Source: Raillietiella orientalis (taxonomy: Eukaryota). Taken from it: 64,000 nt of DNA. The position numbers and the translations under genes were made by a program. Of this stretch, positions 10,512-47,173 are shown one piece after another. The stretch covers positions 2,976,001 to 3,040,000 of the forward strand of contig JAYWIR010000003.1 of assembly GCA_036172245.1 (NCBI GenBank), given 5' to 3'. Under the pieces are notes generated by a model that searched no databases, had not been told where the DNA came from, and saw only the letters and a list, made by a program, of their open reading frames with translations. Each line of letters starts with the position of its first letter. The first letter of the stretch is position 1.

Positions 10512-10512
10512 C

Positions 10513-11539
10513 CAGCAGGCAGTGGCAGGACTGCTGTTCCTGCCATTTCCGAAAGCACTTGGACCAGCGAGATCCGCCTTGGAAACGGAATGGAGAGGAA
10601 TAGGCAATGAGGGAAGGAAATCGAAATAAATGAAAAAAATAGGAAACGGGAGGATTGGTCGAGAGGATTCGGGAAGGGATGAGATTCTTGTGGTAAACGT
10701 TCTCCTCGCCTCCTGAAGGATGCCGGCATGTTGCTCCTGCGAGGCGATCCCCAAGGGGTCGGAGGACAGCACAGTCCAACAGCAGGTGCGGGAGGGTCTC
10801 CTCCTACCCAAGGCTGTCGCACCGAGCGTCCACCCTCCCTCCTACCCCGTGTCCGGTGATGAAGGCGCTCTTCGCATGGGATGTGCGAGTTGCTGCTGCA
10901 TAGTTCGCAGGCAGGGAGCTCTTGTCGCGATCCTCAAGAAGAAGCGAGTGGAGTAACGGAAAAGGGTGGCGTCTGTCGCCATGGTTTCTTCCGGCGGCTG
11001 CCCAGGCTGCCGCAGTCGCACCAACTCAGCAGACGGCTGCCAGCGGCAGCGCGTCGTCCTGCACGAGCGGGAGCTCCGGAACGTCTCTGCGGTTGCGAAT
11101 GGTTCTGGAAGGGGCCGAGGGTTCTGCCGGGGGACACTGTCCACCGGCAGGTGCGGTGCGCGAGGGATTCCCTGTCCTCTCACCTGCGGCAGTTCGGGTC
11201 CACCCTCCTCTCCCGTGTCCAGCGATGCTGGCGGGCGTTTCCCTGGAAGACTCCGATGCCACGCCAGCAACGCCGACAGCTGTCGCTTCGAGGGAAGGGT
11301 GGCGGTGTCCATGGATACGGCGGGCGGCAGCAGATCTTGCAAGGGAATCTCCAGGAGCTGGGACTCAACGGATGATTGGTTTGGGTGGGGCACCTGTCCG
11401 CGCCTTCGTTAAGGTGATGTGCTGTGTGTCCACCAAGCGTTTTCTTCCTGTACGCTACTTCTAAGGAACCGTCCCACCTCGTCGGTAGGCAAGTGCTGTT
11501 TCGCTCGCTCAGGGAGGGCAACACTCCGGCGAGGGGGGC
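10513..11539 (-). mobile_element. Decayed L1/Tx1-like RT plus C-terminal zinc-finger fragment in the palindrome 1 spacer; direct duplicate at 47174-49115
   Basis: Minus strand reads ARCDSLG*EETLPHLLLDCAVLRPLGD (zf-RVT-type ET..H.L..C motif). The near-identical copy begins cagcaggcagtggcagg at 47174. Confidence 0.65.
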
Positions 11540-12365: not shown

Positions 12366-15300
12366 TTGATGTAATACGTTGAAGTGGTATACATTCTTGA
12401 TAAATACTTTGCAACCGTTGATATAAGAAGGGCGTTCGAGCGAAAAATGACGAAGTGGAATTTTGCATGAAATATGAAAAGCGTAAATTTTTATGTTCGG
12501 TACGCACGCATCTTCTGCGAAGATATGCACATACACGTCATACATGCATTGACCGAGGAGGTGAGCAGTGGAGAGGGGAAGGCTTTTCCCTTCAAGGTAT
12601 TTCCGCGTTGATTCGATATGGGAAATCTTTCATAAGCATCAAGAAGCATAAAGAAAGAGCTGAATGGGAAGAGTTTGTCCACAGGGCGGTGATGACCCTT
12701 GTGGGGTTCCCAAGTCAACGTGCTGATGTGGCAGAAATCCACGTATTCCCTTTACGATGCAATTATGCTTTTGGTGCGAGCACCGATTTGCGCAGGATGT
12801 GTTTGTGTGCTGTAAATTGTGGGAATTTCGAAAGGGTCGATGGGGGCAGCATTCGGTGTCCACCGGTAAAGAAAACTGGAATGGGAAACTCTGGCAGCAG
12901 TTCCGTGCCAGCGGTTGCGGTGGAACGTCCGAGTCCCATCCACGTGGACATGCATCTCTTCATTCATCGTACATACCGTAGGTTTACGCAGAGGTCGAAG
13001 GGGTCGTATACGCATTTGAACTGGCCGATCGAGCGTACGTCATGGATAAGGGGGGCGAAGAGGGAGCGGATCGTGCACGTGATCCGGCGGCGGTGGGGAC
13101 TCGCAGGGGAGTTTGCTCTGCAAGGGACACAGTGCGGGGGAGGCTCCTGGCTGCCAACTGTCTGCACGTCGTTGTTTTGCGTTATCCACGAGGATTCTGG
13201 CCTTGGTCGATAGAATAAGGGTAATTCAGGGTTCGAATCCAGATGCAGCCTGGGGGTGAACGGATGGGGGTGAACTATGGCTTGTTACATTCGGATGCAG
13301 GAGTGTGATTTCCTATCGAGATGGGGTTCAGCTCTGCCCGAGAAGGATAGGTTGAATGGTGGTGTCGACTGCCAATCTCCCTTCGCCCTGGTGAAAAAGA
13401 TTAGATAAGTCGCAGCCTGGTTGATGTACCGCAAGGTGCATCTTGGCAAAGGGATTGGAGCGCAGGATTGCCATGATGTTGATGATTTTGGGTTGCTTCG
13501 TTTTGTATTCGACCGAATGGTGGTAGGGGTCGGACTGGAACAGTAGGTGGTAAGTAGAAAAGAAGCGCCAAGTGTAGGTCGGGGTCCAATCCAATGGGAA
13601 TGGAAATTTGTTGCTCCGTCAGCGAAGAGTCGAGTGGAATGGAAGCTGCAAGAGGCGGGATGCGGGGGTCCATCTTCATGTGGCGCTGAGCGCTGACCGA
13701 GTCATGTATCTGGCTAAGCAGTGACTGAAGAACGAGGACGTGTTTGTTTTTTGGTTTCGCGTTTGCCCTCAACGCAAAATGGCGTTACTTAACCGTGATG
13801 GAAGTTGGAGGTGGCTGTCGTGGGGGGGTTTGATGGAAGTTGGAGGTGGCTGTCGTGGGGGGGTTCGAATCCTGGGTCGGAGTTCTTTTCCGAGTTGAGT
13901 GTGAGCAGGAACCGAGTCATGTGAGCAGTGTTCCGAACGGTACGAGTTGGGGGCTTGAGAAGGTTGCGAGGTGAGAACAGGACAGGCAAAAAAGTGGGAC
14001 GCTCTTCTTCAAAGGCTCGTGGGTGGTGATGGTGCGAGGTAAGGTGTGCTGTGCGTGTTGCTGAACGCCTTGGGAATGTCCATCGACTGTGCTAAAAGTG
14101 GCACGAGAATCAGCGACTGAAGTGGCAGCGGTCGGACCAAGAAGAGAGAGAGGGAATGCTTCCGAAAGAAAGATTGCTCCTTGCATTCTTGAAAGTTGCC
14201 AAATGCCGAAACTCCTTTGCAGGATGTGCCGTGGGTGGTTCTGCAAGGTTCGTGGCACATCCCGCAGCCGTGAAGCCGTGAACAAGGAGCGGACGACGCG
14301 AGCATTGGATCGCCTTTTGGTCGAGTTGTGCACACGCTCGCGACGTGATGTTCAGCAATTCTTTCTGCAGCACCAGCACCTGCAGCTGCTGAAGAACTGC
14401 GACGACCGTGCTAAGCGGAAGGAGAAAAGCTGCGATGCCGTGAAGAGACTCCGTGCAGGCGACACTTGAAGGGCAACGGCAAAGAGCTCGCAAAGTCGCT
14501 GGATGGACCCCGGACGTTTCCACGGGACGAATCAGTGAATCGTTGGCGATGGAACGGCTCGGATCGTGGTCAGGGTTATTTTTTAGCAAGCGTACTCTTC
14601 CGTGCCAATTGTCTCGATGCAGCCGCCCACTGCCAGCGGTCGTTTCATCAGGAACCATCTCAAGCTGCGTTCTCAGCAGAACCGGTGTAAAAAAGACAAA
14701 AGCGTTGAGGTTCCAGAGATCATGCAGCAGTGAAACAAACGCTTGGACGGCAACTCTCGAGGAATACGCCAGAGTTGGGCAGCCCCACGCAACGCTGTCG
14801 TCGCTTCAGAGCAGCGCGCGGTGCTGTCTTAAGAATGGCAAACGCGCTTCCGAATGCACGTGGGGACGACGTGTGTCCACTTCTCTTCTATCCAGACCGC
14901 CGAAAGAGTTGGATAACCCCAATGTCTGGAAACGAGCTGACTTGCTGACGGTCCTCTCTGTGGCATCGTCTCGTCCTTATCTGCTTTCTTTCGTTTCAAG
15001 TCGCATGCTCACGTGCCGGCATCTCAAGTACCTTGAAAGAACGCGAAGGTCCTCTGCGTATGCTGATGAAGCATCGCACCCTACCAAGGACAAGGCAACT
15101 TGTTGGCAACCGTCTTCAATGGAAACGAAGGCGGTGGCCCTTCCGAAAAGCTTCCGAAAGCCGGTGAAAACACGCGGGCAGAGAGCATCACAATGCTGCG
15201 GCTTGGTGTCGCCCTTCCTCCGAGCTGCAATCAGAAAAAAGCCCTCGAACGCAACCCCGCAACGCGCATCCGAGCGCCGAGCACCTCTGCCCCGGGACCA

Positions 15301-16659
15301 CACGGATGCTGCCTGGGCTGAGATGAGCGCTGCGTCGCTACGATTCGCCGAGGAAGCTCTTCCGCGGGAAGAGGGTGGCGTTTCCGCGTCCCTTGCTTGC
15401 CCCTGGTTTCGTGCGCTCGGGCAGCAACGCGCACGCCTTCTTGCGCGTTCTGTGGGCTGAATGCTTCCTGCCTGCCCTTTCACTGCGCAGGGCAAACGCC
15501 CCAACGGCGGTGACACGAGCGCGCGCCCGCCGTTGCCATCTCCGGCCTGCTGTCCACGGCGAAAAGCACGTGCCCTTCGTCGTCGTCGTGCTCGTCCGCT
15601 CGCTCGTCGCACATGCAAAGAAAGACGAACGCTGAGCAGCGCCAGCGGAGGCCGAGCCTGGGCAACAGGCTGCCACTCGCGGATGGCGCCCCTTTCGCGA
15701 GCACATCCTTCCACGTGGACCGTGCGTGCCCAAGGGGTCGGTCAGTCGCGGGCCAGCCTTGGCTCGCTCGCGCCCGTTTCCCTGTGCCTGTGCGAAAGTG
15801 GCGGGAAGCGATCGCGGGGGTGGCCAACTCGCCTCGTTGCCGCCGCGTCTCCGCCAAGCGCCGAGCGTGCGCCGCCAACGAGCTGAACAACGCAAGCCTC
15901 GGGAAGCTGAAAGAGTGCAGAAACAGCGAGCGCACGGTCGCTTGCCACTTCCTCTGTATACCAATGCATCCCCATGGGCCGGCCACGCCTGCGCAGCAAC
16001 CACTCTATTTGGCAGTCCCCGGCGGCAGGCACGCCGACAGCAGCAGCGGCAGCAACGCCACGTACCAACTCCCATCCCGCTTGCAGTGGGATGGGAACCA
16101 GCAGTGGACTTTTCGCAGAAGAGACAACTGCTCTTCCTTTCGCAAAGCACCCGCTGTTGGCTCCCTGTCCGTGGACGCAACGTGGCTGCAGTGGAACGCC
16201 ACGGGCGCGACCGTGGCTCAGGGCACGAGAAGTCGGGACGGCGCGCGGCGACGCACGGTACTTGGCCATGATGACGTGCGCACGCGCGTTCCATCGCCGA
16301 GTACCGTGCCGGAGGGCGGCGCCAAGGCGCGGAAGACGTGCGTGCGCGGTGGCCTCGTGGTCGTCTTCCGCTGGCCCGTCGGTGCGCCAAGATGGGCTAG
16401 GAAGGGGATCCGCGTGGGCGGCGTCCACGGACCTGTGGCGCGCGCGACAGGAAGTTCGGGTGCTGCTGGTTGGACAGCAGCTGTGATCGTGGGCGCTGCC
16501 GGCTCTCTCTCGTGGTGACCTCGTGGGTGCATTTTGGTTACGTGGGAAGGAGGTGATTCGACGGAGGACGGCTGCTCCGGATTTCGTGACGCGTGTGGAG
16601 GGAGGGGGGGTTGTTGCAGTACGTCTGCCGGCACGGAAGTCAGGAAGACGGGATCGAGC
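12366..16659 (-). repeat. Palindrome 1, right arm
   Basis: Reverse complement of 6204-10511 with SNPs, a 35-bp tandem duplication (13796-13865) and a 31-bp deletion near 16355. Confidence 0.97.
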
Positions 16660-19136
16660 GGAAGAGGGCACGTGCCGTGTAGCAGCCGCGGGTGCGTGGG
16701 TCCGTCGTACGTGTCGGTGGGCCTTAGGTGTGTCTGTGGAGTGCAGTCCGGCCGAGGCGTTCTCTGTCGACGCTGTCGGGACAGCTGCAAAGGATGGAAC
16801 AGCGGGAGCGCGGGTGACGGCGAAGGTGCGCGTTGGTGCCTTCGACCTGTCGAGTGTCGGGAGCCGAGCCTCTTCCTTCTCCCGTTGGGTTCGTTGGGAC
16901 TCTGTGCGGAATAGGTGCGCTATGGCGCTGCCGTTGCTGGGCGAGTCCGCCGCGCTGTGCTCGCCCGCATGCGCTCGTTCCGGGCAGAGGTGGGCGCGAC
17001 GAGGGACATCTTGCTGGACATCGGGATGCCGTTCTCACGGGAGATTTCCCTCCGCACCGGAAGGCGCATTCGTCACCCCAGCACCATCTCGCCGTGGTGT
17101 GTGGCAACACGTGTGCTCGCACGTGTTGCCACACACCACGCGTTCCTCTTCGGACAAGCACCGGCGTGTCGCCTTCTCGTTTCTTTGTTTCGGCGAAGAG
17201 CAGCACGCGTTGCGGCTGCTCTTCGCTCAACGCCCGTAGGCCAACACTTTATGGATCCTGGCTGCATTCGATTCGCAACGGGAGCGAAGAGGATGCACCG
17301 ACCGAGAAGAAGACGCGAGGCGTTGCTCGGAATCGTCCACGTAGGGGCGGATGCGCGCTCCGTGCGACGGACCTCCTGGTCCACGCCTCGTCTGCGGAAG
17401 TGTTGGCTTCCCCATTTTCGCCGTTAGCGCAACCCATTTGCGCACGCCACCGACGGAAGGAAGGTGCAGCGTGAGGGAAGGAAAGCAGCCTGCCAGAGAA
17501 TGTCAACATTTGATAGCGAGCCGTATCAGCTGTCCACGGGGGCTGTGATGCAACGATGGCTTAGCGCTCCAGCTGATACAGGGAGGTAAGGGATTGCATC
17601 ACCCGAAGATGCAGCAGCGTGAGAAATAGATCCCGATCGATTGGGTGCGGGTTCGTCACCTAGCGTTATTTAAAAGGTGCTCCGGCTGGGCTGCGACGGA
17701 CAGCTGACGAGCATCGCACTTTGTCCGTGTGCCCCGTGCGTGCGCTTTTTGGCCAGCAGCATCCCTCGGACACGCAATCGGGGCATCGCCCAGCGGGAAG
17801 GATTGCCTCGGGATATATTCTCCGTGGGGCAGTCGGCCTGGTCCCTGAGCAGCGAACGCACCATCGAGCAATTGCGTGAGTGTTGTTCGGCAGGCGCCCC
17901 GCGGAGAGACATCGGCCGTTGGTTGCTTGCAGTGTGCTGCTGCTGCATCGGCGCACCCGCACGACTCGCGCGCTGGGCTCGCGTCGAAGCTGGGCTGGAA
18001 GGCGAGGGGCTCGGCTGCAGGAGGATGCTGGAGCAGCGAAGAGGCAGCCACAAGAATGCAAGATCGCAACCGATTTCTTGCTTGCTGCCACCGCCTCGCT
18101 GCAGGAAAAGCTGCGGGTGCTCGCCCAGAAGCCGCGACCGAGGGACAGGCGCCGCCGGCATGTGAAAGGTCCAGTGCCATGCGGAAATCGGCGAACAAGA
18201 TGAACGGAAGGTACTGCAGGCACGCGCATTCACTAGGGGTCAGGGGGGTGTCCACGGAAAAGGTGGCAATTGGAGGTGAGTTGGGATGCGAGGTGCACGT
18301 GTAGGAGGGCAGAAGGCCTCCCAGAGAACGCTCAGGCATCCGCTGCGCCCCCTGGCTGTTCTCTCTGCCCGGGTGGGTGGTCTTTTTCCTCGCCTGGGAA
18401 CGGGTCGAAACGCGACCACCCTTCTCCGCAGGATTCCAACGAAATGCCACTCACTCTTCCGGACGGTGTGCCATTTTGGGTCGGGGGTGCGGTCGCGTCA
18501 TCCCCGAACGCACGAGGCGCACCCTGGCTTGTCGCGGTCCACTCTGGGCTGCGGCAGCTCTCCCGCTTTTCCCTCTCCACGCGATCCCCTGCTGAATCCA
18601 CTCGGCGATGCTGCCCGTCGGATGGTCGGCGAAGAGCGCGCGCGCGCGCTACTCTTTGCTTTCGCTCAGCGGAGCCCTCGTTTGCGTTCCACCAGTCGTG
18701 TGGTCTGCCCGCTCTCGGTCTGCCCGAGGTCACGTGGCGAGAGGGTCTTCCGACGCCCGCCTGCTCCGAAGAACGGCGGTTAAGGATCGTAGCACGCGCT
18801 TGTTGCTGGAAGCTGCTCTTCCTTCCGTGCCGGATTCCATGGGAACGCGTGGTCCCGATCGCACGACAGCATCCCGGCGGCGCACGTGCAGGAGCGGTGC
18901 TGCCTCGCCTGTAAGTCTTGCGTGCGAGCGAAAGAGTGCGTGGTACGAAAGGCTGTCCGATGAGTGGTTTCTCTGACTGAACTGCACGCGCGGACGCGCG
19001 CAACTCGTCTCCCGTGCGCAGGCGGCTGCAGCTGCTGCATCCTTCGGGAGAAACGCGCGCGGCCTGCCGTGCGCGTGGCACCCCCTCCCGTTTTGCCTCG
19101 CGGGCGTTTGCGTGCGCGCCTTTCCTTCTGGCAAAG

Positions 19137-19137
<1 letters not shown>

Positions 19138-19176
<39 letters not shown>
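19138..19176. repeat. (GCT)13 microsatellite; (AGC)7 in the mirror arm at 40973-40993
   Basis: Counted directly. The 18-nt length difference matches the shift in mirror coordinate sum from 60131 to 60149. Confidence 0.95.
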
Positions 19177-19179
<3 letters not shown>

Positions 19180-19899
19180 TGCAGCGCGAGCACGTGCACC
19201 TGCTGTGCCCTGACGATTCGCAAAAAAGGTTAGCGTGTCGGACGGCACACAAGGAAGCGTGAGCTTCTCTCTGGACGTGCAGGGTTGCCAGCAGCCACTG
19301 CAAATCGGACCGGTGGTGGAGCGAGCGTGTCCCATCGGGTCGCCAGGTCGGCGTTGCAAGGCTGGGCGGTTCGAATGGGTGCGAGCAGCGCGGGAGAGAC
19401 TGCTGCCTCTCCGGGGTACCAAAATAAACGCACAAGAAGAAAAAAACATAAGAAGAAGAAAGGGCGAATTACGCTTAGAAACGGGTTATTTTAATCCTCC
19501 TGCGCAGGTGTTTGTCTTGGATCCAAATATGGAACGGCGGCTTCCTGTTCTGCTCAGCACAATGCAATCCGCACCAAGACGAGGTTTTTCTTTCTCTTTT
19601 TTCCTGTCTCAAAAAGAGAAAAGCGCGCACCCTTTTCGCGCGCCCCACCTGCCGCGGCGAATGGCGGCCGGAAGTCCGTCACGGCATTGTTGCGGCGGTG
19701 CCCCGCGAGACGCTCCTTCGAGCAGCATCTCCGAGACGGCAGCAAAGCAAAAAGAGAAACGAAAACACACACACACAGAGAAGTCACTTTCCGCTGGAGA
19801 GGGAAACGTCCGCACTGTTCCTCGAAAGGCTATTTTTGCAAAGTGTTCCTCATGAGCCCCATAGAATTCGCCTCATTTTCGCTTTCGTCCAGGACAGGG

Positions 19900-22800
19900 A
19901 TGGAGCAGCCGGATGCCCAGGAGGGACACATACGGGACTTTGAGGACATTCTGCCTCACGTGGATGGGTTCGGCAGATTCCAGAAGAGGATGCTTGTCGT
20001 CCTGATCATCACATTCTTCGGATCAGCCGTCGTGCAGTTCGCGCAGGTGCCATGTTTCTTTCACGACATATGTTTGGTTCTTTGTGTATGTGTGTGTAGG
20101 TGAATGGGTGGTGGAGTGCATGTGGCTGTCTTCCGGTTTCCCCCTGTTCCTCGTGCCTCCTTGGACTGCCACATTGCCACGTCCACGAAGACATCGTAGT
20201 AGGCCCTTCTCTCCACGGACGCCTTCCGCCCCTTTGTGTCGACTGCCGCCGGCGTTGCCGAGCACACGTGCAGCGGCGCGACTTCCAAGATGGCAGCCGG
20301 AACTTGAGGGTGGCAGCTTGTCCAAGTGACGGAGCTCGAATACTCGACTTGCATCGTTTTCCTAGCGACTCACTTCTAATAGCTGGGAAATGGGTCGGAA
20401 TGTGCTCCCAGTTGCAGCAGAGGAAGGGTTGGACACGGGTGGAACAACACACTTGAAGGCTGTGCGTTCCCTTCCAGCTGCTTCCGCTCGATTTCTAGAG
20501 CGCATTCTCTGGGCGCGCTCACCGAACTCCAGCTCCTGCTTCCCGAGTTGCGAGGGTGCCTCTTCAGCTGGCAGCTTCTTTTTCCGGGTCAGACGGGTTG
20601 CTCCGAGTTGCGCGTCTCGGAAGCGCGGCCACAGCGCGTGCGGCGATCATAGGCGCTCCTGGCCTGCGTGCGAGTGCGCAACCGAAACTTCCGGCCGAGC
20701 AAACACAGAGCGTCAGGAGAGCATTTCCTTGTCCTTGACACTGCTCTTCAGAGCACATCCAGTTGGTTCGAAGAGCGTGAGGGGAACGAAACGGAAAGCA
20801 GCAAACGGAGTGTCGGGCGACATACAGTTGGTTAGTCCGTTTGCATACTCAACGTATCCAAACGATGAATCATCCAACTTCCGTCGGAAGAGGCGAAGAA
20901 GTCGTTTGCCATGTCCCCGTGTTGCGAGATTTGACCGCTGAGGACTTGCAGCGACACCGAGGACCCCCCCCCACACACACACACAGTGCAAGCCGTCCGC
21001 ATTTCTCGAGGCGCGCGTGCGCTCGTCAGCACCGCCTGGACCGCATCGCGGGCTGCTCCCCACTCTCTTTCGAAGGGTTGGGGTGAAAGGGGCGGCGTGC
21101 TGGATGGAGTGCGCTCGCAGAAGCCATCCGACGGCCGCCCCACGCAGGCGCTTTCGGCGCGACCTCTTTCTCGGAGTCGCGGGACGCGGCGACCGGCAGC
21201 AGCGCGCAAGGTCGGCCGCTTTGGCGATCGCAGCTTGCAAGCCCGTGGGCGACGCTCCACCGTAACCACGAGTGCTTTCAGCTCTTCATGGTGTTGGAAC
21301 CGGATTACTATTGGTGTCACGTTCCGGCCCTGAAAAACTACAGCGCTGAAGTGAGGAAACACCTGTCCATTCCTCTGCTTCCCACGGCAGGACAAGAGGC
21401 CCGTTCGCAGTAGGCAGCCCCCCGTCCGCTCCTCATCTCTTCCTGTGCTGCAGCCCGTCCGACGCGCACTACGACAAGTGCCGGATGTACGATGTACGAT
21501 GGGAGCACACCGCCGTCATCAACAACACCATCGACCACAGCGGCATGAAGACGACGAAATGCTCGTTTGGCTGGGAGTACAACTTCACCAACTTCTACCC
21601 GACCGTGCTCACGGAGGTAAGCTGTTCGCCGCAGTCGCCCGCACACGCTCATGCGGTGGTCCCCTTTGCGTCCCTTCTTCGCACCGCACTGCCCGTTGGC
21701 CTGGTCGTGTCCGCCGGCAACCACGAAGCTGCACTGGGTGTGCGACGACGACTGGAAAGCCAGCATGGCCCAAGGCCTATTCTTCGTCGGATCTGTCATA
21801 GGGACGTTGATCTTCAGTTTTGTATCCGACCACTACGGACGGAGAACGGCTTTCGTCGCCACCAACTTGGTGACCGGAGTCTTCGGCACCGCAACTGCTT
21901 TTTCGACCAACTTTATCAGCTTCACCCTCTTCCGCGTGCTCGTCGGAACAGCGTTTACGCTCCAGTGTTCCTCCCTGATGGTGCTGGGTGAGTCAGCTTG
22001 AAAAGAGCGTGTGCGTGCAAGTGTGCACCGACCTGTGATGAGTGGCCCCTCGGCAAGCTGGTTGCTTCGAAACCACGCAGCGCGCGCTCACCGCGAACGC
22101 GGTTGCCTGCTCGACCTCTCGCGTGCCGAGCGAGGCAGTGCGCTCGGTCTGTGGAGGAGCGCCTTCGTTCTTGCCGCGGGCTACGGACGCGGCTCTCTCT
22201 GCTGCAGCCTTTTCTGCACATCCAGCTCAGGCGTTCTCTGCACTCCGCATGCTGGGAGGCTGCTGATCCGTTGGAGCGGTCTGCTGCGTGCACCGGCAGA
22301 TGGCTTTCAGCCACGAGGACGTCACTGTGGCCGCCGGCAGGAAAGCGCGCGTCCCCTCGGAGGTCAAGTTTTCCCAAACGTGGAGGAGGTGGAGGAGGTT
22401 GCTCTGAGCAGCAACCTCCTCCGTGCGACCACAAACAGACCACGTTCCAACAACACGAGTGTTTCGTGGTTCGTGGTCAAAAACAGCCACCCCGCGCTCT
22501 CGCACGCCGGCACGGTCAGGTGGCGTTTGTTGGAGCAGAAGACGGGCTCGACAAAAGGTGGACGGCCGAAGGTCAGATGGTTTCGGTCAGTTAGCTGCTC
22601 CTGCTCCGGCACGTCTTCCTCGTTTGGCTGCTGTTGACGGCCAGTCTGGAGGACGGCTGCGCACAGGTCGCTCGGAAAGCGGGGGATGCAGAAGGCACGC
22701 ATGCGGTGCGGTGCTGTGCTGGACCGAGAAGCGTGCTGGACGCCAGGGGGGTGCGCACGCGCTGCTCGCCCGAGCGACAGAGCGTGGCGTGCTGCGCGCG

Positions 22801-25800
22801 ATCGTCGGCCGTTTCGGGAATGCGCGTGCCTCGCTGCGCAGAACCGTGCGCAGGTAGGAAGGAAGGAAGAGCGACCTGCGCTGGTAGGCGACGCGTGGAC
22901 CCCCCACGCTGCCGTGCGCCTCGAGCGCTGCAGCTCGCCCGGGCAAGCGAGCCGATGCTGGCGGTCATGCTGCCGCTTTCCCCTCGCAGCGCGAGAAAAG
23001 AAAAGAGAGTTGGGCTTGTGCGAGCGCGACCCTCGGCAAAGCCCGCCCGGGCGGTGGCATTGGCCCGGGCAGAACGGCGATTCTCGGGATTGCCGTTCGC
23101 TCTGCACGGCGCTAGAAGGGAGGAGCGCGGTCCGGCAGCGGGAGGACGCTGCAGAGCAGGGAGGGAGGGGAAGGCCGCGAATCGGCAAGCTCGTCGTGCG
23201 AACCGTCGGTCCAGGTTGGGATGGTGAGCGAACGCGAGGATGGGGACCGCTCTCGTCAGCCTGTGAATGCAGCTTTGCGCCCCTCTGTAGTGCTGGAATA
23301 CGTGCACATCTCCAAGAGACCGATGGTGGTAATACTGCCGATATTGCTCGGGTTCACGCTAGGCTGCCTGGTCATGCCGTGGGCAGCCTACGCTCTCGGC
23401 AACTGGAGGCACTTCACCCTATTCTTCCACGTTCCCTTCCTGGCGGTAGTCTTCGCCCCGATCTTCGTTCCGGAATCGTGCAGGTGGCTCATCTGCAAGA
23501 AGAAAGTGGACTTGCCGCTGGCGACTCTGAAGCGGATTGCCGTGACCAACGGTCGAGCTCTGGACGAGAAGCTTCAGCAGCAGATACGCGTGAGTGATCG
23601 CTCTGGTGGCAGCGTGGTGGTGAGCGGCCGCTTCCCACCTCAGAATTACCTCGAGAAGGACGACAGCAACTCGAAGGTGAATTACAGCTGGCACGACCTC
23701 TTCCGCAAGCCTGGCCTCAGGTTCCAGGTCATTTTGGTGTGCATCATCTGGTGAGTGGCAGTCAAGAGCAGACAAGCGCGTGGTTTCCACCCGGACCGTT
23801 TCCTTTCGCAAAGGCGCATGCGTAGGGCCATCGGCCCTACACATGCGGCCGAAGAAAAAGTTTGAAGCTTGCCGTGGCGCGTGGCGGGGCCGTCCGGGGG
23901 CGTGGAGGCAGCGAAGAGGTGCCTTTGCCGCTCGCTCGGCCGGCAACGCGCCGACGGGGACGACGGGGGGCTGGTCGTCTGCTTGCTGTCCCTCCCACGT
24001 GGGCGGCTCACCGCTTTCTGCGGGCAGACGGCGCAGGCAAGTGGTGCCCTGTGCGCACAAGAAACGAGCACACTGGGGCCACCGTCGAACGGGTGCGAGT
24101 GTTGTTGGTGCTGTGGTCTTTGCGGTGGCGGTGGTCGCTCAAGAAGACGGCAGCCCTTCGCCCGCCCTGCTGCCGAACCAACGGGTGCGCTCGCGTCCGA
24201 CAGCCACCACGCTCGTTTTTCTTTTTCCCGTCGACGGGACTGCCTGGACGCGTGCGTTCGTCTGCTGGCCGCTTCTTCTTGTTTCTGCAGCTGCCATCAC
24301 GCTCAGGTTTGAAGACGCAGCACCAAGAGAGACCGTCCCGGTTACCCGATTTCCCTCCACGCGAAAAGGTGCCCGGCCGGTGGTGATGAAGTCTTCGGCG
24401 AAGAAGCGTCGGGGTTCATGGTCGCGCGCGGTGGTGAAGACGGTCTCCCTGCTGCGAGGAGAATGCGCTCCGTCGAAGGAAAGGAGCGCCTTCTCCTTCG
24501 AGTGGCAGACAGAAGAAGAATCCCTGCCAAGGAGAAGGCTGGGTGGATGGGTGGTCAACGCAGGAAGAGCAGGCTCGCAAGGAAGGGAAGGGATGCCAGC
24601 AAACGCGTTTTGTGTCTGCGTGGGGGGGGGCGTACCCCCGCAGACACCGCGGTGAACGCGGGCTCACCAGGGTGCTCCACCGCCGCACGCCCGTTCGGCC
24701 GCGTAGTTGCTGGGTGACGGTAGCGGTTTTCATGGGAGCCGTTTCCAGGAGCCTGCAGTGCACGGCGTTTGAGGGTCACGCGCGCAACACGGGTAACCTG
24801 GGGATCGATCCGTACGTCTCGTTCACGATCGCCTCCGTGACGGAGGTGCCCAGCGCTCTGGTGGCGCTGTACCTGGAGAACTCTCTCGGCAGGAGGCCTT
24901 GCATCGTGATGTTCCTCTTCCTGGGAGGCCTGAGCGGACTGCTGGCGGCAGGCGTCCCTTCCGGTGAGTTTGGAGGCAAGCAGCTCGCGCGGGTGCGCGC
25001 AGCAGCTGCACCTGACCACGGCCACCAATGACACCGGTCCTCCTTCCCGCACGCCTACCCTTGCCCTTACTACCCCTCCATCACCGCCGCACCTAGCCTG
25101 CCTTCCTGCCTGCTTGCCTGCGCCCCGCGGCGCACTTCCGAGCAGATCGGTACCGCGCGGGCCGCGAGGGAGGTGCGGCGAAAGGAGCGCCACAGCGATG
25201 CTATTTCTCTCCTCCTCGTAGCCATGTACCTGGCGTTCGCATCCGCGTCCCTGGCTTCTCGCTTCTTTCTCAACGTGAGCTACAACGTGCTCATGCAGAT
25301 CCAGCCGGAGATGTTCCCCACTGTGGTCCGCTCGCAGGCGATGGGCCTCACGGACGTCGTCGGTCATCTCTGCAGCTTCTCGTCTCCCTTCATCATCTAC
25401 CTGGTACGTCGGTGTTGTTGCCCGCCTGCTGGGGAGCGGCTGAGGCCGCCGTCGCCGCTCCGGTGTCGCCCCCAGCGCGTCGGTCAGACAAGCCGATGGC
25501 GACGGGGGGTCACCGTCAGGGGCGGCGCCGACGGCAGCATCCTCGTTCCTCTCCGGAAGTGGCTTTTTCCTCGGAACAGCCAGCTGACCCGTATGATCAG
25601 AAAAACTACTCCAGCCATCTCCCTAGCGCCGTGCTGGGCTCGATGACCATCTTGGGATCGGTGCTGAGCACGCTGCTGCCCGAGACCCTGAACAAGCCGC
25701 TCCCGGCCACCCTGGAAGACGGGGAGCAGCTGTTGGCAGGCAGCGGATCCTTCCGGTACCTGGAGGGGTGCTGCAGGTACGTCGGGAAGGCGGGGCGTGT

Positions 25801-26041
25801 GCAGGGACAGCAGCGGCCGCCCAATCCTACGAGGTGGCTGAGGCAAGGGAACGAGGGGGGAGGGGGCATCCTACCGGATGCCGCCGCAGAGAAAGAGACG
25901 TTGAGGGGGAGAAGGGATCTGAGAGTGGACGTCGCGAATGGACAGGGGAAGGTGGACGTCGCGAATGGACAGGGGAAGGTGGACGTCGCGAATGGACAGG
26001 GGAAGGTGCACGTCGTGGTGGTGGTAGAGGGGTCTCCCTGA
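19900..26041 (+). CDS. SLC22-family (MFS) organic cation/zwitterion transporter, copy A, ~646 aa; exons 19900-20046, 21282-21409, 21454-21616, 21729-21987, 23291-23589, 23644-23750, 24749-24963, 25222-25403, 25601-26041
   Basis: Family motifs DFEDILPHVDGFGRFQK, Cys-rich extracellular loop (YWCHVP, DKCRMY, KCSFGWEY, TVLTE|LHWVC), SDHYGRR, VLEYV, VPESCRWL, EMFPTVVRS, LPETLNKPLPATLEDGE. All eight GT-AG introns are phase-compatible and there are no internal stops. Confidence 0.93.
25925..26005 (+). repeat. 27-nt coding tandem repeat x3 (VDVANGQGK) in the C-terminal tail of SLC22 copy A
   Basis: gtggacgtcgcgaatggacaggggaag repeated three times exactly. Confidence 0.95.
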
Positions 26042-26499
26042 GATGGCGGCAAGCAACGTGGTTGAGAGTCCTCACCCGGATGCCAGTCGGCTGGCCAGGC
26101 CGCAGGGATGCATGCTGCTGCCTCGAAGGGGGTCCCGACCCAGCGAGTCTCTTCAGGCCTAATAGCGTCCGCTTCTTAGAGATGATCTTCCTGGGGAAAG
26201 ATGGTTGGTGGACGCTATCTGCAAAGACCGATCGACCGCCCAAGAGGAGATCCCGCGTCGCCATGCACCATCTGCTCTTCCTCTGCCTGCCTTCGCGTTC
26301 GGCTGCCGCAAACGGCGTCGCCGACCCGCCAAGTCACAGGCGCATGGGGAGGACGTTTCGCCCCTCTCGATAAAACTGGGGATGGGGAAGATCGGGGACG
26401 AACGGGAGGAGGAGGACGAGAAGTGGAATCCAAGGAGATGAGGATCGGACGCCGATACGTGCTGGGATACGTGTAGGGGCGCGGCGTCGGACGACTTCC

Positions 26500-27960
26500 G
26501 CGCGTGCTCGTATTCGCGCCGTCGAGCTTCTCGTGGGCCGCGAGCGCTCCGGTCTTGGGGTCGGATGTAGCCTACGCCCTTTCTTCTCCCTGGGCGACCG
26601 TTTCCGAGAGTCCACTCCCTGGTGTCCACGCTCTGCGGAAATGTTCCGGTCGGCCGGTGGCGCCCACGCTGCTGACCAGGGCGCAGCGCGTGCACTTCGG
26701 GGGTGACCACTTCGCCTTGCTCGCTCGCTCGCTCGCTCGCTCGCTCCTTCGCAGCCCCATTGCAGCAAGCCCTAGCTCGGAGTGGCTCCTCCAATGCCTG
26801 GCTGCCCCGCTCGCGCCGCATCGTTCGCTTCCCATCCCTCCTGCCGTCAACCACCACCTGCGCGCTGGCTGTCCATTCGCTTTTCCTCTCGCGCTTTCCC
26901 GTTTTCGCTGGCGGCGATTCACGCGGCACCCGCCCACCCTTCCGCCGGCCTGCTTGCTGCTCGAACCGACCGTCTGCCCATTGCGTTCACGCGCGCCTCT
27001 GCCCCCCACCCGGTCTCCGCCGGTCCCTCGTGCGGCTTTTCCCAACTTCCCTCTGCCCAAACTGTGCTCGACGACGCGGGCACCTTAGTCCGCATCCTTC
27101 GCCGGTCGCTGTTCCTCGTCGGAGGTCCGGGAGCTGCGGGCACCGGGTTCGCACGCACCGGCTTCACGCGTCTTCTTGCTGCTGCTGCTGCTGTCCTGCA
27201 ACGCCGCGCAGGGCGCACTGCCGTCAGCTATCCGGCATAGCCGAGCCGACGCTCGTCGAGTTGCTTGCCATGCCTGCACGTGGCGTCTGCTGACCTCGGT
27301 CAGCCACCGGGACTGCTCCCGCTAGACGGCCGCGCAGGTGCCAACGCAAACAACCCGACCTGTGAGCGCGCGCGCGGGTGCGTTCGGCCGTCCGGATCGG
27401 CGCACCCCTTCGGAACTGACCCTTTTGCCGGAATTTCCCCCGGAAGTTCCGTCGGAAGACGACGAGGAGGGAAGTAAGCTCGCGGAGGAGGTGGGCGCAC
27501 GCGTCAATCCGGACGCCACGTGGTCAGGCTGAACGCGGTGGTCTTCTTGCGCCACGTCTTGCGTCTGCTGAGCCGGTTCCCCCACTGGCCGCTCCTCTGC
27601 CCCCTCCCTGACGCGCGAGCCCGTGGGCAGTGTGGGCGCGCACGGGGCAGGCGCGAGTTGCACGAGCCGGGAGAAGGCTGGGTTGGACGAGCCGGCGGCT
27701 GGAAGGTGGGCAGCAATGAACAGCCGCACCTCGTCGAAACAAACTAGTGAGCATGCGTCTTGATGTTCCAGGAGGAGGAAGCAGGAGGAAGAGCCCATCG
27801 GAATTCAAATAACGCATCAGACTTCCTTCGGCACCGCACCCTGAAGGAGGAGGAGGGGTTCGCCGTCAGAGCGAGGAACCGCTGTCGGTCCGCCCGGCCT
27901 GAGGAAGTGGATGGAAGCCGCTCTGGTTTGGACTGTTGCGATGCCGGTGGCAGAATAAAG
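26500..27960 (+). mobile_element. Probable decayed LINE 3' portion (mirror copy ~31850-33300 minus)
   Basis: Degenerate zf-RVT-like peptide (GSCGHRVRTHRLHASSCCC) and AATAAA near 27954. Heavily mutated. Confidence 0.35.
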
Positions 27961-28999
27961 GTTACGGCGGTGGCAAACGAAGCGTTGGTGCAGCCGTGGA
28001 CGGCGCTCAAACTGAAGGTTGCGAACGCTCCCGGGGTGCGGGCTGCACGAGGAGGGAAGAAGGGGGGAGGGGAGGCTGCAAGGCGGCGCTGCGCAACCGG
28101 TGTCGCTAGGCGGTGCGACCGACCACGCGCCTCAGGTGGACGGATGCTGGTCCTGGAAGGCGTTTCCGTTGCGTCACCCGAGGCGGGGGGTTTTCAGTCG
28201 GGGCGGCTGCCAATCGGGATGGGCCCATCGGGGCACGGGGAAGGCAGGAACGGGCTCTGCGAAAGGGTGCAGGCAGATGGTAGCCGGCGGAGGGCGTTGC
28301 CTGCCGACGAGCGCTCCGAACTCTTCGCGCTCCGCGAACGCTGGGTGCTGTTCGGGAAGAGTGCGCCTCGGGCGACGCGGCACGACGTCAGCCCGCCCCC
28401 GAGGCAGCTCGGAGAGGGACTTACTCCCCCCGCGTGCCCCCAAGAGAGGGAATGTCGAATGTCGTGGCCTCGTTGTACGCCGCCAGCTAGGGCCCCTCCG
28501 CCTCGTCGGTGCAGCGGGGCTTCGGCGCCGGAACGTGGCCACCGGTGAGCGTGCATGGTCTCCAAGGAACGGTGGGTTGGTGCGTGCACGCGCGTACGTG
28601 GCTTTTCGGGCGTGTTGCAGGCGGCAGCGGGCGTCGCTTCGACCGCCCGGCGACCGCACCTTTGCTCGGAAGAGCGTTCTTACCCAACCTTCCGCGGTTT
28701 CCCTCCCGATGCTCGGGCTTGGCACTGGTTTTTGCAAACGTGCGAGAGTGTGGATGTGGCTGTCTTTGCACTAGTGTTCTCTTTTGAACCTCCCTTGTTT
28801 CCGTTTTCCAGAATCTTCGACGACTTTGTTTCTTAATGGTGATGACAGGCCGTTTGTTTTATAGTTTGCGTATTTATTTTCTTCTTTCAAGGGCACTGAG
28901 AAGGTCGCTCTTGCTGCTATTCTCTTCCGATAGTGCAAGTTGTGCTGCTGGTACGGAAGAGCTGCATTGCAATGCGAGAGCGGACATGGGTTTCAAGAA

Positions 29000-29800
29000 A
29001 TCCGTTGACCCGGTGACCATGCACCTTTGCTCGAGCAAATGCGAGAGTCCTCAGGCGTTTGAAGCCAGGTTTCGCGTGTTCGCTCTGTGCGGGTTGACCG
29101 GACGCTGGTCACGCGCCTCGGCAAGGAGCGGAGCTGCTGATTGGGAAACTCAAGAGCCTTCTTCATCCGTAGACCTCGAGCCACTACCGGGAAAGCGTTC
29201 ACCGACGGCTGCGGAAGCTGCATCGCGCGCTTCCGACGGACCTCGTGAACCGGGGGGTTCCCTATGGTTTCGAACTCCGTAGCTTTTCTGCAAGCAGCTG
29301 GAGGACCCTCGTTCCAGCAGGCAGGGACTCACCGAATTTACCCTCGAGCTACGACTCCTCGGTTTCCCCGTTTAATCTCGTCCAGTCTCCACGCCGAAGG
29401 GATCGCCGCTTCACTTCTGTCCTTAGTCACATCCAGAAAGACTTGCAGGGAGGTCCGCACCGCTTCAGAGCCCGTCGTGATCCCAGTCTTTTCGTGAGAC
29501 ACCTCCAAAAACAAATGCAGGTGCTCTGGAATTGCTCCCTGAAACTTTGTACGCCTCCCGGATTTCATCCTCCTCACATACCACAGGTGCAGTAGGTGAC
29601 CCGTTTATTGCTAATTCCTGGCAACCGAAGGGTCTCGGCGAGAGGAAAGACGCAAATATATCTGTTCCCCAGTGTTCTCCAGAGAGGTTGTGCTCGCCCG
29701 CGGCCGGCTGTGCCGAGCCTGATCAGAGGACCTCAGCAGCAGCATTTCGGTGGGTTCCTCTCAGTCGATCCCACGCAAACAACCTCCGGTCGTCTTCATC
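29000..29800 (-). mobile_element. Decayed L1/Tx1-like RT N-terminal fragment in the palindrome 2 spacer
   Basis: KFQGAIPEHLHLFLEV...LQVFLDVT...AAIPSAWRLDEI resembles the K.PG.DG.P.EFY...LP.SWR...I segment of LINE RT. Confidence 0.45.
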
Positions 29801-30290
29801 ATAGCTGCGAAGTTGGTGCTAGCGGCGCGCCCTCTTTCGATCTTCGGCTCGCAAATTCGTTCCCATTACGCACCGCCCCCGCGCTCTCTGCCTGCGGACG
29901 GCAGCTTCCGCCTGCCCCTCACATCCAGTGCGCCGAGCACGAGCGGCGCGTGCCTCCTTTGACGTGTCGCGCAAAGCAGGAAGGGAGGTCAGCCACCTGA
30001 GCAAGCAGCAGAAAGCAGGAGCCTTGGTCGGCTCTGGGAACCTACCTCCCCCCCCCCCTCTCCCAACAGGCGTCGCGCGCTGCTCAAGCAGAGAGGGGGC
30101 AACCGTGCCAACCCGAAGGCGAACCGAGAGTCACGACCTCTGACACATCGCCACGTCGCAAGCTCCTCACGGGCACGTGGAAGTTTGCAAGAACGCCCCC
30201 CCCCCCAACTTTCCGGCTCTCAATAAGGAAACCAAAAGGAGCAGAACGGATAGCGGCGGCATGCTTTCCTCTTTCGTGAACGGCGCAGAG

Positions 30291-31042
30291 TCAGCCAAGC
30301 AGCCGAAATCGAGACCGAAAATCAAAACCAAGACGTTCCCACAGGCACAGAAGCACCTCCGTGTCGCCCAAAGCATGAAAAACATCTCCAACAGCATGAA
30401 GGCTATCGACTACATCAGCTGTTGTTGGCTTTCCCTTGCGACTCTTCATCCTCGCGAGGCCTGCATCTGCCGAAATAAACAGTGACAGTACTGTACTATA
30501 GTTGCTGTACGTGTACAAATCCATCAACTTTTCACACAGTCCGTACGATCAAACACGTTATCATGAAGGCATGCACAACAGAGCACACTCTTTCCATCAC
30601 TTCACATCAACAGACTTTGCTTTTGCAAATCGCCAAAATCCTCTGTGGTCTTCCTCGACACGAAATCATCCCTCCATTATGCTTTATTTCATCAGTCTTT
30701 TACCAGAAAATGGTAAAGGCGTAGAATGGGGAGAGGGGTGGACGAGGAGCAGCAACAGGGAAAGAGCTGCCTTCTTCGCCTAACTGCAAACATACCTTTA
30801 AGGCGCTTGAAGCGAAAAGGAAACAAGCAGAATCGTCATTTACCCAGAAATGCCGAGCGTGCTGCAGCATCCGAGAAGAAACCGATCAGTACGCGACCGA
30901 ACTTGAACTCAGACGGGTCAAATTCTCGAATTATCTGTTCATACCATTCTCGTGTGTCGGCAGCCGCCTTGGGGAGTATTGGGCTATTTCGCAGCCACGT
31001 TTTCCGACGACGACGAAACGAATCCCTGCATAGTGGTAACAT
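30291..31042 (-). pseudogene. Diverged unprocessed CCDC32 duplicate (exons 31042-30844 and 30466-30291); could still encode a ~124-aa chimeric protein
   Basis: FSDAAARSAFL|DAGLARMKSRKGKPTTADVVDSL aligns to parental LSDSAEYLAVL|DARLARIKRRKENPTTVDVVDAF. Same phase-1 GT-AG intron, and the intron sequence aligns to 59657-60032. Confidence 0.75.
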
Positions 31043-31097
31043 CGCTTCCGGAGTCCACGCTCCGCTTTGCCCCCGTCGGCAGCAAAACCTCAGAATG

Positions 31098-34000
31098 GGG
31101 AGGGAAACCGCGGAAGGTTGGGTGAGAAGAACGCTCTTCCGAGCAAAGGTGCGGTCGCCGGGCGGTCGAAGCGACGCCCGCTGCCGCCTGCAACACGCCC
31201 GAAAAGCCACGTACGCGCGTGCACGCACCAACCCACCGTTCCTTGGAGACCATGCACGCTCACCGGTGGCCACGTTCCGGCGCCGAAGCCCCGCTGCACC
31301 GACGAGGCGGAGGGGCCCTAGCTGGCGGCGTACAACGAGGCCACGACATTCGACATTCCCTCTCTTGGGGGCACGCGGGGGGAGTAAGTCCCTCTCCGAG
31401 CTGCCTCGGGGGCGGGCTGACGTCGTGCCGCGTCGCCCGAGGCGCACTCTTCCCGAACAGCACCCAGCGTTCGCGGAGCGCGAAGAGTTCGGAGCGCTCG
31501 TCGGCAGGCAACGCCCTCCGCCGGCTCCCATCTGCCTGCACCCTTTCGCAGAGCCCGTTCCTGCCTTCCCCGTGCCCCGATGGGCCCATCCCGATTGGCA
31601 GCCGCCCCGACTGAAAACCCCCCGCCTCGGGTGACGCAACGGAAACGCCTTCCAGGACCAGCATCCGTCCACCTGAGGCGCGTGGTCGGTCGCACCGCCT
31701 AGCGACACCGGTTGCGCAGCGCCGCCTTGCAGCCTCCCCTCCCCCCTTCTTCCCTCCTCGTGCAGCCCGCACCCCGGGAGCGTTCGCAACCTTCAGTTTG
31801 AGCGCCGTCCACGGCTGCACCAACGCTTCGTTTGCCACCGCCGTAACCTTTATTCTGCCACCGGCATCGCAACAGTCCAAACCAGAGCGGCTTCCATCCA
31901 CTTCCTCAGGCCGGGCGGACCGACAGCGGTTCCTCGCTCTGACGGCGAACCCCTCCTCCTCCTTCAGGGTGCGGTGCCGAAGGAAGTCTGATGCGTTATT
32001 TGAATTCCGATGGGCTCTTCCTCCTGCTTCCTCCTCCTGGAACATCAAGACGCATGCTCACTAGTTTGTTTCGACGAGGTGCGGCTGTTCATTGCTGCCC
32101 ACCTTCCAGCCGCCGGCTCGTCCAACCCACCCTTCTCCCGGCTCGTGCAACTCGCGCCTGCCCCGTGCGCGCCCACACTGCCCACGGGCTCGCGCGTCAG
32201 GGAGGGGGCAGAGGAGCGGCCAGTGGGGGAACCGGCTCAGCAGACGCAAGACGTGGCGCAAGAAGACCACCGCGTTCAGCCTGACCACGTGGCGTCCGGA
32301 TTGACGCGTGCGCCCACCTCCTCCGCGAGCTTACTTCCCTCCTCGTCGTCTTCCGACGGAACTTCCGGGGGAAATTCCGGCAAAAGGGTCAGTTCCGAAG
32401 GGGTGCGCCGATCCGGACGGCCGAACGCACCCGCGCGCGCGCTCACAGGTCGGGTTGTTTGCGTTGGCACCTGCGCGGCCGTCTAGCGGGAGCAGTCCCG
32501 GTGGCTGACCGAGGTCAGCAGACGCCACGTGCAGGCATGGCAAGCAACTCGACGAGCGTCGGCTCGGCTATGCCGGATAGCTGACGGCAGTGCGCCCTGC
32601 GCGGCGTTGCAGGACAGCAGCAGCAGCAGCAAGAAGACGCGTGAAGCCGGTGCGTGCGAACCCGGTGCCCGCAGCTCCCGGACCTCCGACGAGGAACAGC
32701 GACCGGCGAAGGATGCGGACTAAGGTGCCCGCGTCGTCGAGCACAGTTTGGGCAGAGGGAAGTTGGGAAAAGCCGCACGAGGGACCGGCGGAGACCGGGT
32801 GGGGGGCAGAGGCGCGCGTGAACGCAATGGGCAGACGGTCGGTTCGAGCAGCAAGCAGGCCGGCGGAAGGGTGGGCGGGTGCCGCGTGAATCGCCGCCAG
32901 CGAAAACGGGAAAGCGCGAGGGGAAAAGCGAATGGACAGCCAGCGCGCAGGTGGTGGTTGACGGCAGGAGGGATGGGAAGCGAACGATGCGGCGCGAGCG
33001 GGGCAGCCAGGCATTGGAGGAGCCACTCCGAGCTAGGGCTTGCTGCAATGGGGCTGCGAAGGAGCGAGCGAGCGAGCGAGCGAGCGAGCAAGGCGAAGTG
33101 GTCACCCCCGAAGTGCACGCGCTGCGCCCTGGTCAGCAGCGTGGGCGCCACCGGCCGACCGGAACATTTCCGCAGAGCGTGGACACCAGGGAGTGGACTC
33201 TCGGAAACGGTTGCCCAGGGAGAAGAAAGGGCGTAAGCTACGTCCGACCCCAAGACCGGGGCGCTCGCGGCCCACGAGAAGCTCGACGGCGCGAATGCGA
33301 GCGCGCGCGGAAGTCGTCCGACGCCGCGCATGGCGACGCGGGATCTCCTCTTGGGCGGTCGATCGGTCTTTGCAGATAGCGTCCACCAACCATCTTTCCC
33401 CAGGAAGATCATCTCTAAGAAGCGGACGCTACTAGGCCTGAAGAGACTCGCTGGGTCGGGGCCCCCTTCAAGGCAGCAGCATGCATCCCTGCGGCCTGGC
33501 CAGCCGACTCGCACCCGGGTGAGGACTCTCTAACTCATCTCTTGCCGCCGTTTCAGGTCCCTCTTTCCACCACCATCATCTCTGGCGAAGACGAACAGCT
33601 CCCACCGCGTTTAGGCATCGCTTTCGGGAGCGACGACAGTCGACTGTTTACAGTGGCCGCCGCAGCAGAATCAGCGGCGTGTCCGCTTCCAGGCAGCCAG
33701 CATCCGGATCTTGGCAATGTCGCGAATTCGCCCCTCCGCTGGTCTCGGCGTTTCCGAGGCCGTCTCGCCCCGCATCTTACTCCCCTCCCATCTTACTCTC
33801 CTCTTTCCGGAAGACGCCGCGGTCTCAGGCTGGCAATGAGGCAGCTCCGTCGGATAGGCCCACCTGCCTACGTCTTTTCATCCCTGCCCGCCAACAATGC
33901 CTCCATCACGCAGCTCTGCCATTCGCGGAAGCGGAAGAGCGGCTGGAAACCTCCCCACGCATCTCCTCCCCCAGACAGCAACGCTCCAGGTTGAGTCCGT

Positions 34001-47170: not shown

Positions 47171-47173
47171 ACG

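Follow-up and report, generated by a model that had tools for sequence, protein, structure and literature searches.

Primate sex chromosomes carry large palindromes in which gene conversion runs from arm to arm. The palindrome described here lies in a 64,000-nucleotide (nt) stretch of the genome of Raillietiella orientalis (GenBank assembly GCA_036172245.1, contig JAYWIR010000003.1, positions 2,976,001 to 3,040,000; hereafter the window, with all coordinates counted from its first letter), and its arms hold twin copies of an SLC22-type transporter gene. It resembles the primate palindromes in its inverted arms, its unique spacer, the gene pairs in its arms, and an arm identity near 99.9%. However, it is much smaller, with 13.4-kb arms, its gene encodes a membrane transporter, and its arms show sharply bounded coding differences, whereas the primate arms are uniformly identical. 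Where interlocus gene conversion and selection act together, a peak of divergence is expected (Innan 2003; Teshima & Innan 2008), and primate opsin exon 5 and RHCE/RHD serve as examples of it in the review PMC3924837. As in the red/green opsin and RHCE/RHD pairs described there, the introns and flanks of the twin transporters are near-identical, divergence is concentrated around a few amino acid sites thought to underlie the functional difference, and synonymous differences are sheltered nearby. Unlike in those pairs, there are three peaks, each only 6 to 28 nt wide where those of the known pairs take up an exon, and the copies are inverted in a palindrome instead of tandem. Islands of divergence that persist under gene conversion have been described in an invertebrate as well, in the GOT1 paralogs of the copepod Tigriopus californicus, where conversion-resistant islands are read as selected for new function (PMC3728101). 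The islands reported here may be of the same kind, in another gene family and another arrangement. The phenomenon itself is known, and the twin transporters would add a sharp new case to it.

We assign a probability of roughly 0.5 to the reading that the two arms are near-identical by arm-to-arm conversion while the three islands are kept by selection, with a functional difference between the two transporters that likely concerns how ions or substrates are handled at the central cavity. The parts of the palindrome and its two genes are as follows.

15299..28713, plus strand: left arm (arm A) of the large palindrome, from inverted-repeat and blastn alignment to 44863-31092
28714..31091, no strand: unique spacer between the arms, about 2.4 kb; arm-to-arm similarity stops at the arm ends
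31092..44863, minus strand: right arm (arm B) of the large palindrome, from inverted-repeat and blastn alignment
19900..26041, plus strand: SLC22-type gene, copy A, from GT-AG boundaries, open spliced frame, tblastn, Pfam, and TIGR00898
Copy A, exons 1 to 4: 19900-20046, 21273 (or 21282)-21409, 21454-21616, 21729-21987
Copy A, exons 5 to 9: 23291-23589, 23644-23750, 24707 (or 24749)-24963, 25222-25403, 25601-25777 (or to the stop at 26041)
33987..40249, minus strand: SLC22-type gene, copy B, from exon mapping and translation
Copy B, exons 1 to 5: 40249-40103, 38752-38616, 38571-38409, 38296-38038, 36734-36436
Copy B, exons 6 to 9: 36381-36275, 35319-35063, 34804-34623, 34425-34249 (or on to the stop near 33990)

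Up to position 25777, the two coding sequences differ by 17 substitutions that change 8 amino acids, and the other 558 codons are identical. All 17 fall into three islands, which lie in transmembrane helices (TM) 1, 10, and 11.

20002-20029, mirror 40120-40147, plus strand: island 1 (TM1), nine substitutions; one codon changes synonymously and five change the residue (L>S, I>T, F>Y, S>A, and V>F)
25250-25265, mirror 34761-34776, plus strand: island 2 (TM10), five substitutions; two codons change synonymously and two change the residue (A>T and F>L)
25353-25358, mirror 34668-34673, plus strand: island 3 (TM11), three substitutions giving D>S (two in one codon) plus one synonymous codon

Realignment of the arms exactly reproduced the nine, five, and three substitutions that the initial annotation had placed at these coordinates and their mirrors. 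The substituted positions are 20002, 20003, 20004, 20006, 20007, 20013, 20015, 20023, and 20029 in island 1; 25250, 25254, 25256, 25262, and 25265 in island 2; and 25353, 25354, and 25358 in island 3. Translation of both copies confirmed the peptide pairs LIITFFGSAV/STITYFGAAF, LASRFF/LTSRLF, and TDV/TSV. The description of exons 2 to 7 as nucleotide-identical was also borne out, with 0 differences in the arm alignment, as was the presence of synonymous changes in every island (1, 2, and 1 purely synonymous codons, respectively). The roughly 70 identical nt that had been noted between the TM1 island and the nonhomologous core of intron 1 were counted as 72; they end at the first intron difference (position 20102), and homology itself ends at 20114. 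Identity extends far into the noncoding parts of the gene. For example, between 21273 and 24963 the arms differ only within intron 6, by a 1-nt gap (24348) and one substitution (24523).

The islands have sharp edges. All of them are in frame and free of indels, and each border is a nonsynonymous site or lies 4 nt from one. The four purely synonymous changes inside the islands (20013, 25250, 25262, and 25358) are sheltered between or beside changed codons, compared to zero such changes in the remaining 394.7 synonymous sites. No donor or template for the island sequences was found elsewhere in the window at 4, 2, or 1 mismatches; just three chance 11-mers were shared.

That the differences between the copies are clustered far beyond chance was confirmed by permutation. 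In the homogenized set of 11,890 aligned nt, from which the diverged 3′ block and the unalignable pieces were set aside, 17 of the 35 substitutions fall within 50 nt, and a 28-nt window with nine substitutions arose in 0 of 20,000 uniform permutations (permutation maximum, 4). Outside the islands, the arms differ by 18 substitutions in 11,840 homogenized nt (99.85% identity), and in homogenized noncoding DNA by 18 in 10,162 nt (0.18%). Among the 18 island codons, the proportion of differing sites was 0.457 for synonymous sites (pS; synonymous divergence, dS, ∼0.70) and 0.259 for nonsynonymous sites (pN; nonsynonymous divergence, dN, ∼0.32). Two further segments of the arms stand apart from the homogenized sequence.

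20115..20873 in copy A (759 nt) and 39152-40033 in copy B (882 nt): nonhomologous core of intron 1, with boundaries that coincide in both arms
25860..26478, plus strand, in copy A, with its copy B counterpart at about 33329-34166: diverged 3′ block, C-terminal tail or 3′ flank

The two intron-1 cores showed zero similarity to each other at word size 7, and neither recurs elsewhere in the window. One pair of arms holds four divergence classes, namely, ∼0.2% in the homogenized DNA, 8 to 11% in the 3′ block, an unalignable intron-1 core, and a dS of ∼0.70 in the islands, and this spread excludes a single recent duplication as the source. Repeated arm-to-arm gene conversion with local escape is the best reading of such a mosaic, and the proposal of the initial annotation that an old duplication has been homogenized by it fits all four classes, from the 0.18% of the noncoding DNA to the islands. 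Small clusters of differences also border the nonhomologous blocks, at 20102-20109, 20878-20916 (including 20878-20883), and 26505-26596. This may be because conversion fades near heterology boundaries, so that differences pile up there.

Two other origins of the islands were considered and rejected. Adenine-specific targeted mutagenesis of the retroelement type does not agree with the 17 changes, which involve all four bases. A recent duplication followed by point-wise positive selection is disfavored because the islands hold four purely synonymous codon changes, whereas the remaining codons hold none.

The statement that the copies differ almost only in the three islands needs a boundary, since it holds for all coding differences up to 25777 and fails from 25860 on, where the tail or 3′ block diverges. 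In order, this block consists of a stretch of 89% identity (25840-25961), a 27-nt tandem repeat (25925-26015) with 3.4 copies (98% matches) in copy A and about one in copy B, a segment of ∼490 nt private to copy B, a stretch of 92% identity (26016-26266), and a 212-nt insertion private to copy A. Beyond this insertion there are six transitions in 92 nt, and then near-identity resumes. Should exon 9 extend as far as the stop at 26041, the protein tails would differ in several residues, in the number of 27-nt repeats, and in length (663 versus 644 amino acids in this model). Both tail open reading frames (ORFs) are open and end shortly past the 27-nt repeat, and the first four tail differences all fall at codon position one or two. 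The nine letters after 25777 are the same as those after the exon-8 donor at 25403 and could represent an extra donor, so the sequence from 25777 onward may alternatively be intron or untranslated region rather than a coding tail.

We compared the changed residues with known sites in human OCT1 and OCT2, OAT1, and OCTN2, whose structures are described in PMC10940649, PMC10567722, PMC10643130, and PMC12780140. The twin proteins share with these transporters the major facilitator superfamily (MFS) fold, the long loop between TM1 and TM2, the Glu of TM8, and the Arg of TM10; identity to them is only ∼30 to 50%, and the twins have Phe for the Tyr of the Y-E/D-R/K motif. Exon 8 was aligned ungapped to OCTN2 residues 432 to 483 and OAT1 residues 428 to 475, and exon 1 was aligned to OCT2 from residue 4; a barnacle homologue bridges the twin protein to OCT2/OCT3, ungapped through TM1, TM10, and TM11. 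These alignments showed that the helix assignment of the three islands had been correct. Island 1 aligned to OCT2 positions 26 to 35, and the TM1 numbering offsets for OCT1, OCTN2, and OAT1 were deduced from the alignment start coordinates and the equivalence of OCT2 Y37 with OCT1 C36. Residue numbers for the twins refer to the 663-amino-acid model.

Several of the changed residues align with positions of documented function. A good example is the TM11 Asp/Ser site, which corresponds to OAT1 S462 and OCTN2 S467. According to the published descriptions, S462 and T463 of OAT1 staple R466, and chloride sensitivity is lost in S462A, while S467 of OCTN2 bonds R471 and S157, and the Km for carnitine is ∼15-fold higher in S467C. 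Four residues past this site, at the canonical TM11 charge position, both twins have His, compared to Asp in OCTs and Arg in OATs and OCTN2. The TM1 Ser/Ala site aligns with hOCT1 F32, described as a member of the aromatic bundle that contacts metformin and spironolactone, and with OCTN2 N32, described as a Na+ ligand. The TM1 Phe/Tyr site aligns with hOCT1 S29, and S29L is among the OCT1 variants listed with poor function. The two TM10 changes, Ala/Thr and Phe/Leu, lie at −2 and +1 of hOCT1 R439/OAT1 K431. This residue is described as the basic member, in TM10, of the Y-E/D-R/K motif, whose other members are a Tyr in TM7 and an acidic residue in TM8 and which is itself described as conserved in SLC22A1 to SLC22A8. 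In the twins this motif is incomplete, with the TM8 Glu and the TM10 Arg present and Phe at the Tyr position; of the 10 homologues shown in this part of the alignment, 4 also have Phe there.

On an ideal helix, residues 35, 39, and 42 (L/S, F/Y, and S/A; spaced i, i+4, i+7) and the gate position Q46 make up a stripe whose members are at most 60 degrees apart. By this geometry, about five of the eight changed residues lie on faces with documented cavity or ion-site residues and about three (I/T, V/F, and A/T) lie off them. Neither copy has all of the family-consensus states: copy B carries the F that is common at residue 44 (18 of 34 homologues), and copy A the F that is common at residue 471 (17 of 34), which suggests that both copies carry old states.

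Under the reading that conversion homogenizes the arms and selection keeps the islands, the pattern could arise as follows. Frequent intrachromosomal arm-to-arm gene conversion would homogenize the arms, and heterology would block it at the intron-1 core and at the indel-rich 3′ block. Conversion across a TM1, TM10, or TM11 patch would leave a chromosome with two transporters of one type, which selection would purge. Only tracts ending outside the patches would then reach fixation, and synonymous differences within a few nt of the selected codons would be sheltered. Peaks at selected codons with sheltered synonymous changes are what divergence-peak theory predicts, as set out in PMC3924837. 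Selection against conversion over the islands is plausible and partly supported. The structure of the palindrome, the mosaic of divergence classes, the clustering, and the residue correspondences are established, and ongoing conversion, selection, and differing specificities are inferred. Candidate functional switches at the central cavity would be the TM11 Asp/Ser change, one turn before the charge position, the TM1 Ser/Ala change, and the two TM10 changes flanking the Arg. More tentatively, and at slightly less than even odds, the twins may be an old pair (island dS ∼0.7) held in conversion-driven near-identity, in which selection has pared the difference down to ∼8 residues, in patches as small as 6 nt, among them the Asp/Ser charge switch of TM11 and the TM1 change at the F32/N32 position.

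The arms of the large palindrome also have private features, which include indels, 1-nt gaps, and unique unalignable blocks. For instance, a 31-nt stretch at 16354 (mirror 43777-43807) is absent from arm A alone. It lies in a 1.4-kb segment that is present in triplicate (6181-7599, 15299-16673, and 43449-44863), and it is retained by the other two copies of that segment; the most alike of the three are the two large-palindrome copies. A GCT microsatellite at 19138-19178 (mirror near 40994) lies ∼720 nt upstream of the start codon; arm A holds 13.7 units of it, and arm B holds six units (18 nt; 19138-19155) fewer. The outer end of arm A is shared with a second palindrome.

6190-10514 versus 16673-12363: smaller palindrome, overlapping the outer end of arm A, from self-comparison

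The arms of the smaller palindrome are 96.9% identical in the outer part and 99.2% identical near its spacer. Micro-clusters of substitutions and small indels lie amid identical stretches at 7708-7740, 7852-7914, 8957-8961, and 9084-9091. The third holds five consecutive substitutions, and the fourth holds five in 8 nt. No Pfam-recognizable coding content was found in the DNA of these clusters among ORFs of at least 110 amino acids.

Several points weigh against selection on the islands. The island dN/dS is ∼0.45, below 1. The residue correspondences rest on alignments at 30 to 50% identity, and on an ideal helix three of the changes, I/T (residue 36), V/F (residue 44), and A/T (residue 468), point 120, 200, and 160 degrees off the known cavity faces. 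The diverged tail, if coding, puts differences outside the pocket helices. Dense clusters can also arise or persist without selection on protein; the apparently noncoding clusters of the smaller palindrome imply that protein-level selection is not needed for them. Three of these points, namely the dN/dS, the residues off the cavity face, and the comparable clusters at 8957-8961 and 9084-9091, would equally suit a neutral mosaic, in which the arms convert and the islands persist unselected, either through mismatch-triggered rejection or as complex multinucleotide mutations left unconverted. We nevertheless consider such a mosaic unlikely. The clusters of the smaller palindrome mostly adjoin small indels, compared to islands that are indel-free, in frame, and bordered by nonsynonymous sites, and three mismatches in 6 nt would be a weak barrier to branch migration. 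Moreover, all three of the isolated dense clusters flanked by long identity in the large palindrome fall in the 14.5% of its homogenized sequence that is coding (P ∼0.003), and two or three of the changes are at positions of tested function in OCT1, OAT1, and OCTN2.

Near-identical inverted repeats are difficult to assemble, and the arms might represent two haplotypes or a collapsed or overpolished repeat, with the pattern made by software. The unique spacer, the private indels (31 nt, 18 nt of GCT, and 1-nt gaps), and the private unalignable blocks make a fold-back artifact unlikely, and the 13 to 18 isolated single differences, with 18 scattered substitutions surviving outside the islands, mean that the arms were kept apart and that isolated differences were not erased. 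Together with island changes that respect codons and frame, and with a region that also holds a second nested palindrome and direct duplications, this leaves an artifact quite improbable. A third, old SLC22 paralog located beyond the window could also have written the islands into one arm of a young palindrome through short tracts of ectopic conversion, a scenario that would account for the mixture of synonymous and nonsynonymous changes at a dS of ∼0.7, as expected of a diverged donor, and that agrees with the usual occurrence of SLC22 genes as families. We give it very little weight, because neither a third copy nor a donor-like sequence lies within the 64 kb, and because tracts of 6 to 28 nt from a diverged donor would have had almost no flanking identity from which to initiate. 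The 72 identical nt before the intron core are partly intronic, beyond what a distant donor would supply, and the 8 to 11% block and the intron core itself would be left unexplained.

Both genes belong to the SLC22-type (TC 2.A.1.19-like) transporters, and both are intact, as judged from their gene models. Each has nine exons that splice into an open frame, its introns are 44 to ∼1,300 nt long with canonical GT-AG ends, and the splice sites are identical between the copies. Two acceptors have in-frame alternatives that fit 34 homologues better. The exon-2 acceptor at 21282 gives three residues fewer than the one at 21273, and the exon-7 acceptor at 24749 gives 14 residues fewer and restores a conserved Trp; neither affects any difference between copies A and B. 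In Pfam searches, the exon-4 ORF matched Sugar_tr (E 2.7e-09) and MFS_1 (E 8.5e-09), and the exon-5/6 ORF also matched Sugar_tr. TIGR00898, the organic cation transporter family, was the best NCBIfam family for five of seven exon peptides, with matches ordered along the profile (121-194, 206-297, 349-406, 416-467, and 472-506). The single-exon scores were 17.9 to 72.9 bits, with the exon peptides scored separately, and the curated cutoff of 550.75 applies to the whole protein. The long TM1-TM2 loop comprises ∼95 residues from exons 2 and 3 and has several Cys residues and a Trp-Cys motif conserved with the homologues. Among solved structures, exon 8 matched OCTN2 (E 6.5e-4) and OAT1, and exon 1 matched OCT2 (E 0.056).

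The relatives of the twins are distant. An exhaustive search of representative proteins with exon 4 returned 1,113 relatives at E ≤0.001, and identity peaked at 52% for a full-length protein. The top full-length relatives, with 41 to 52% identity over the exon, were arthropod proteins annotated as organic cation transporter, SLC22 member 3-like or 21-like, or beta-alanine transporter-like. By name, the closest are Orct, BalaT-like, and SLC22-like proteins of arthropods. A metagenome scan with exon 8 gave five loci at 31 to 37% identity only, and among candidates chosen by protein length, 0 of 136 longer proteins scored with exon 4 and 0 of 539 of similar length scored with the exon-8 ORF. In the window itself, tblastn with nine SLC22 homologues found exactly two copies and no third.

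Nested inverted duplications extend across the window, as seen by self-comparison and by inverted-repeat and blastn alignment. A direct segmental duplication connects the left part of the window with the region to the right of arm B: 6181-7599 matches 43449-44863, 10510-11018 resembles 47170-47676, and 11023-11539 resembles 48599-49115. About 300 nt of the spacer of the large palindrome (30399-30708) are 77 to 84% similar to 59590-59882 near the right end of the window, and the pair is probably a dispersed repeat. Outside the transporter genes, the sole Pfam match among 150 ORFs of at least 110 amino acids was a minus-strand MEIOC domain (374-1569). Its halves lie on two adjacent ORFs (E 1.1e-33 and 1.6e-13), which are probably two exons of one meiosis gene, and its presence is a mark of animal DNA.

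If the clusters proved neutral or an artifact, the locus would be a warning against reading clustered differences between paralogs as selection. Should the assembly be right and selection keep the islands, the palindrome would amount to a natural mutagenesis experiment, in which ∼1.7 kb of coding sequence is identical except for eight residues and any differences in transport would map to them. Three of these eight coincide with positions that matter in human OCT1, OAT1, and OCTN2, and two more flank such positions. A selected minimal code of this kind would surpass in sharpness every divergence peak described so far between converting paralogs, and it would pinpoint specificity positions in the SLC22 family. 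It would also provide a quantitative case for theory on the minimum width of a divergence peak under frequent conversion. Finally, it would mean that small palindromes of the autosomal type can, besides homogenizing genes, hold two functions.

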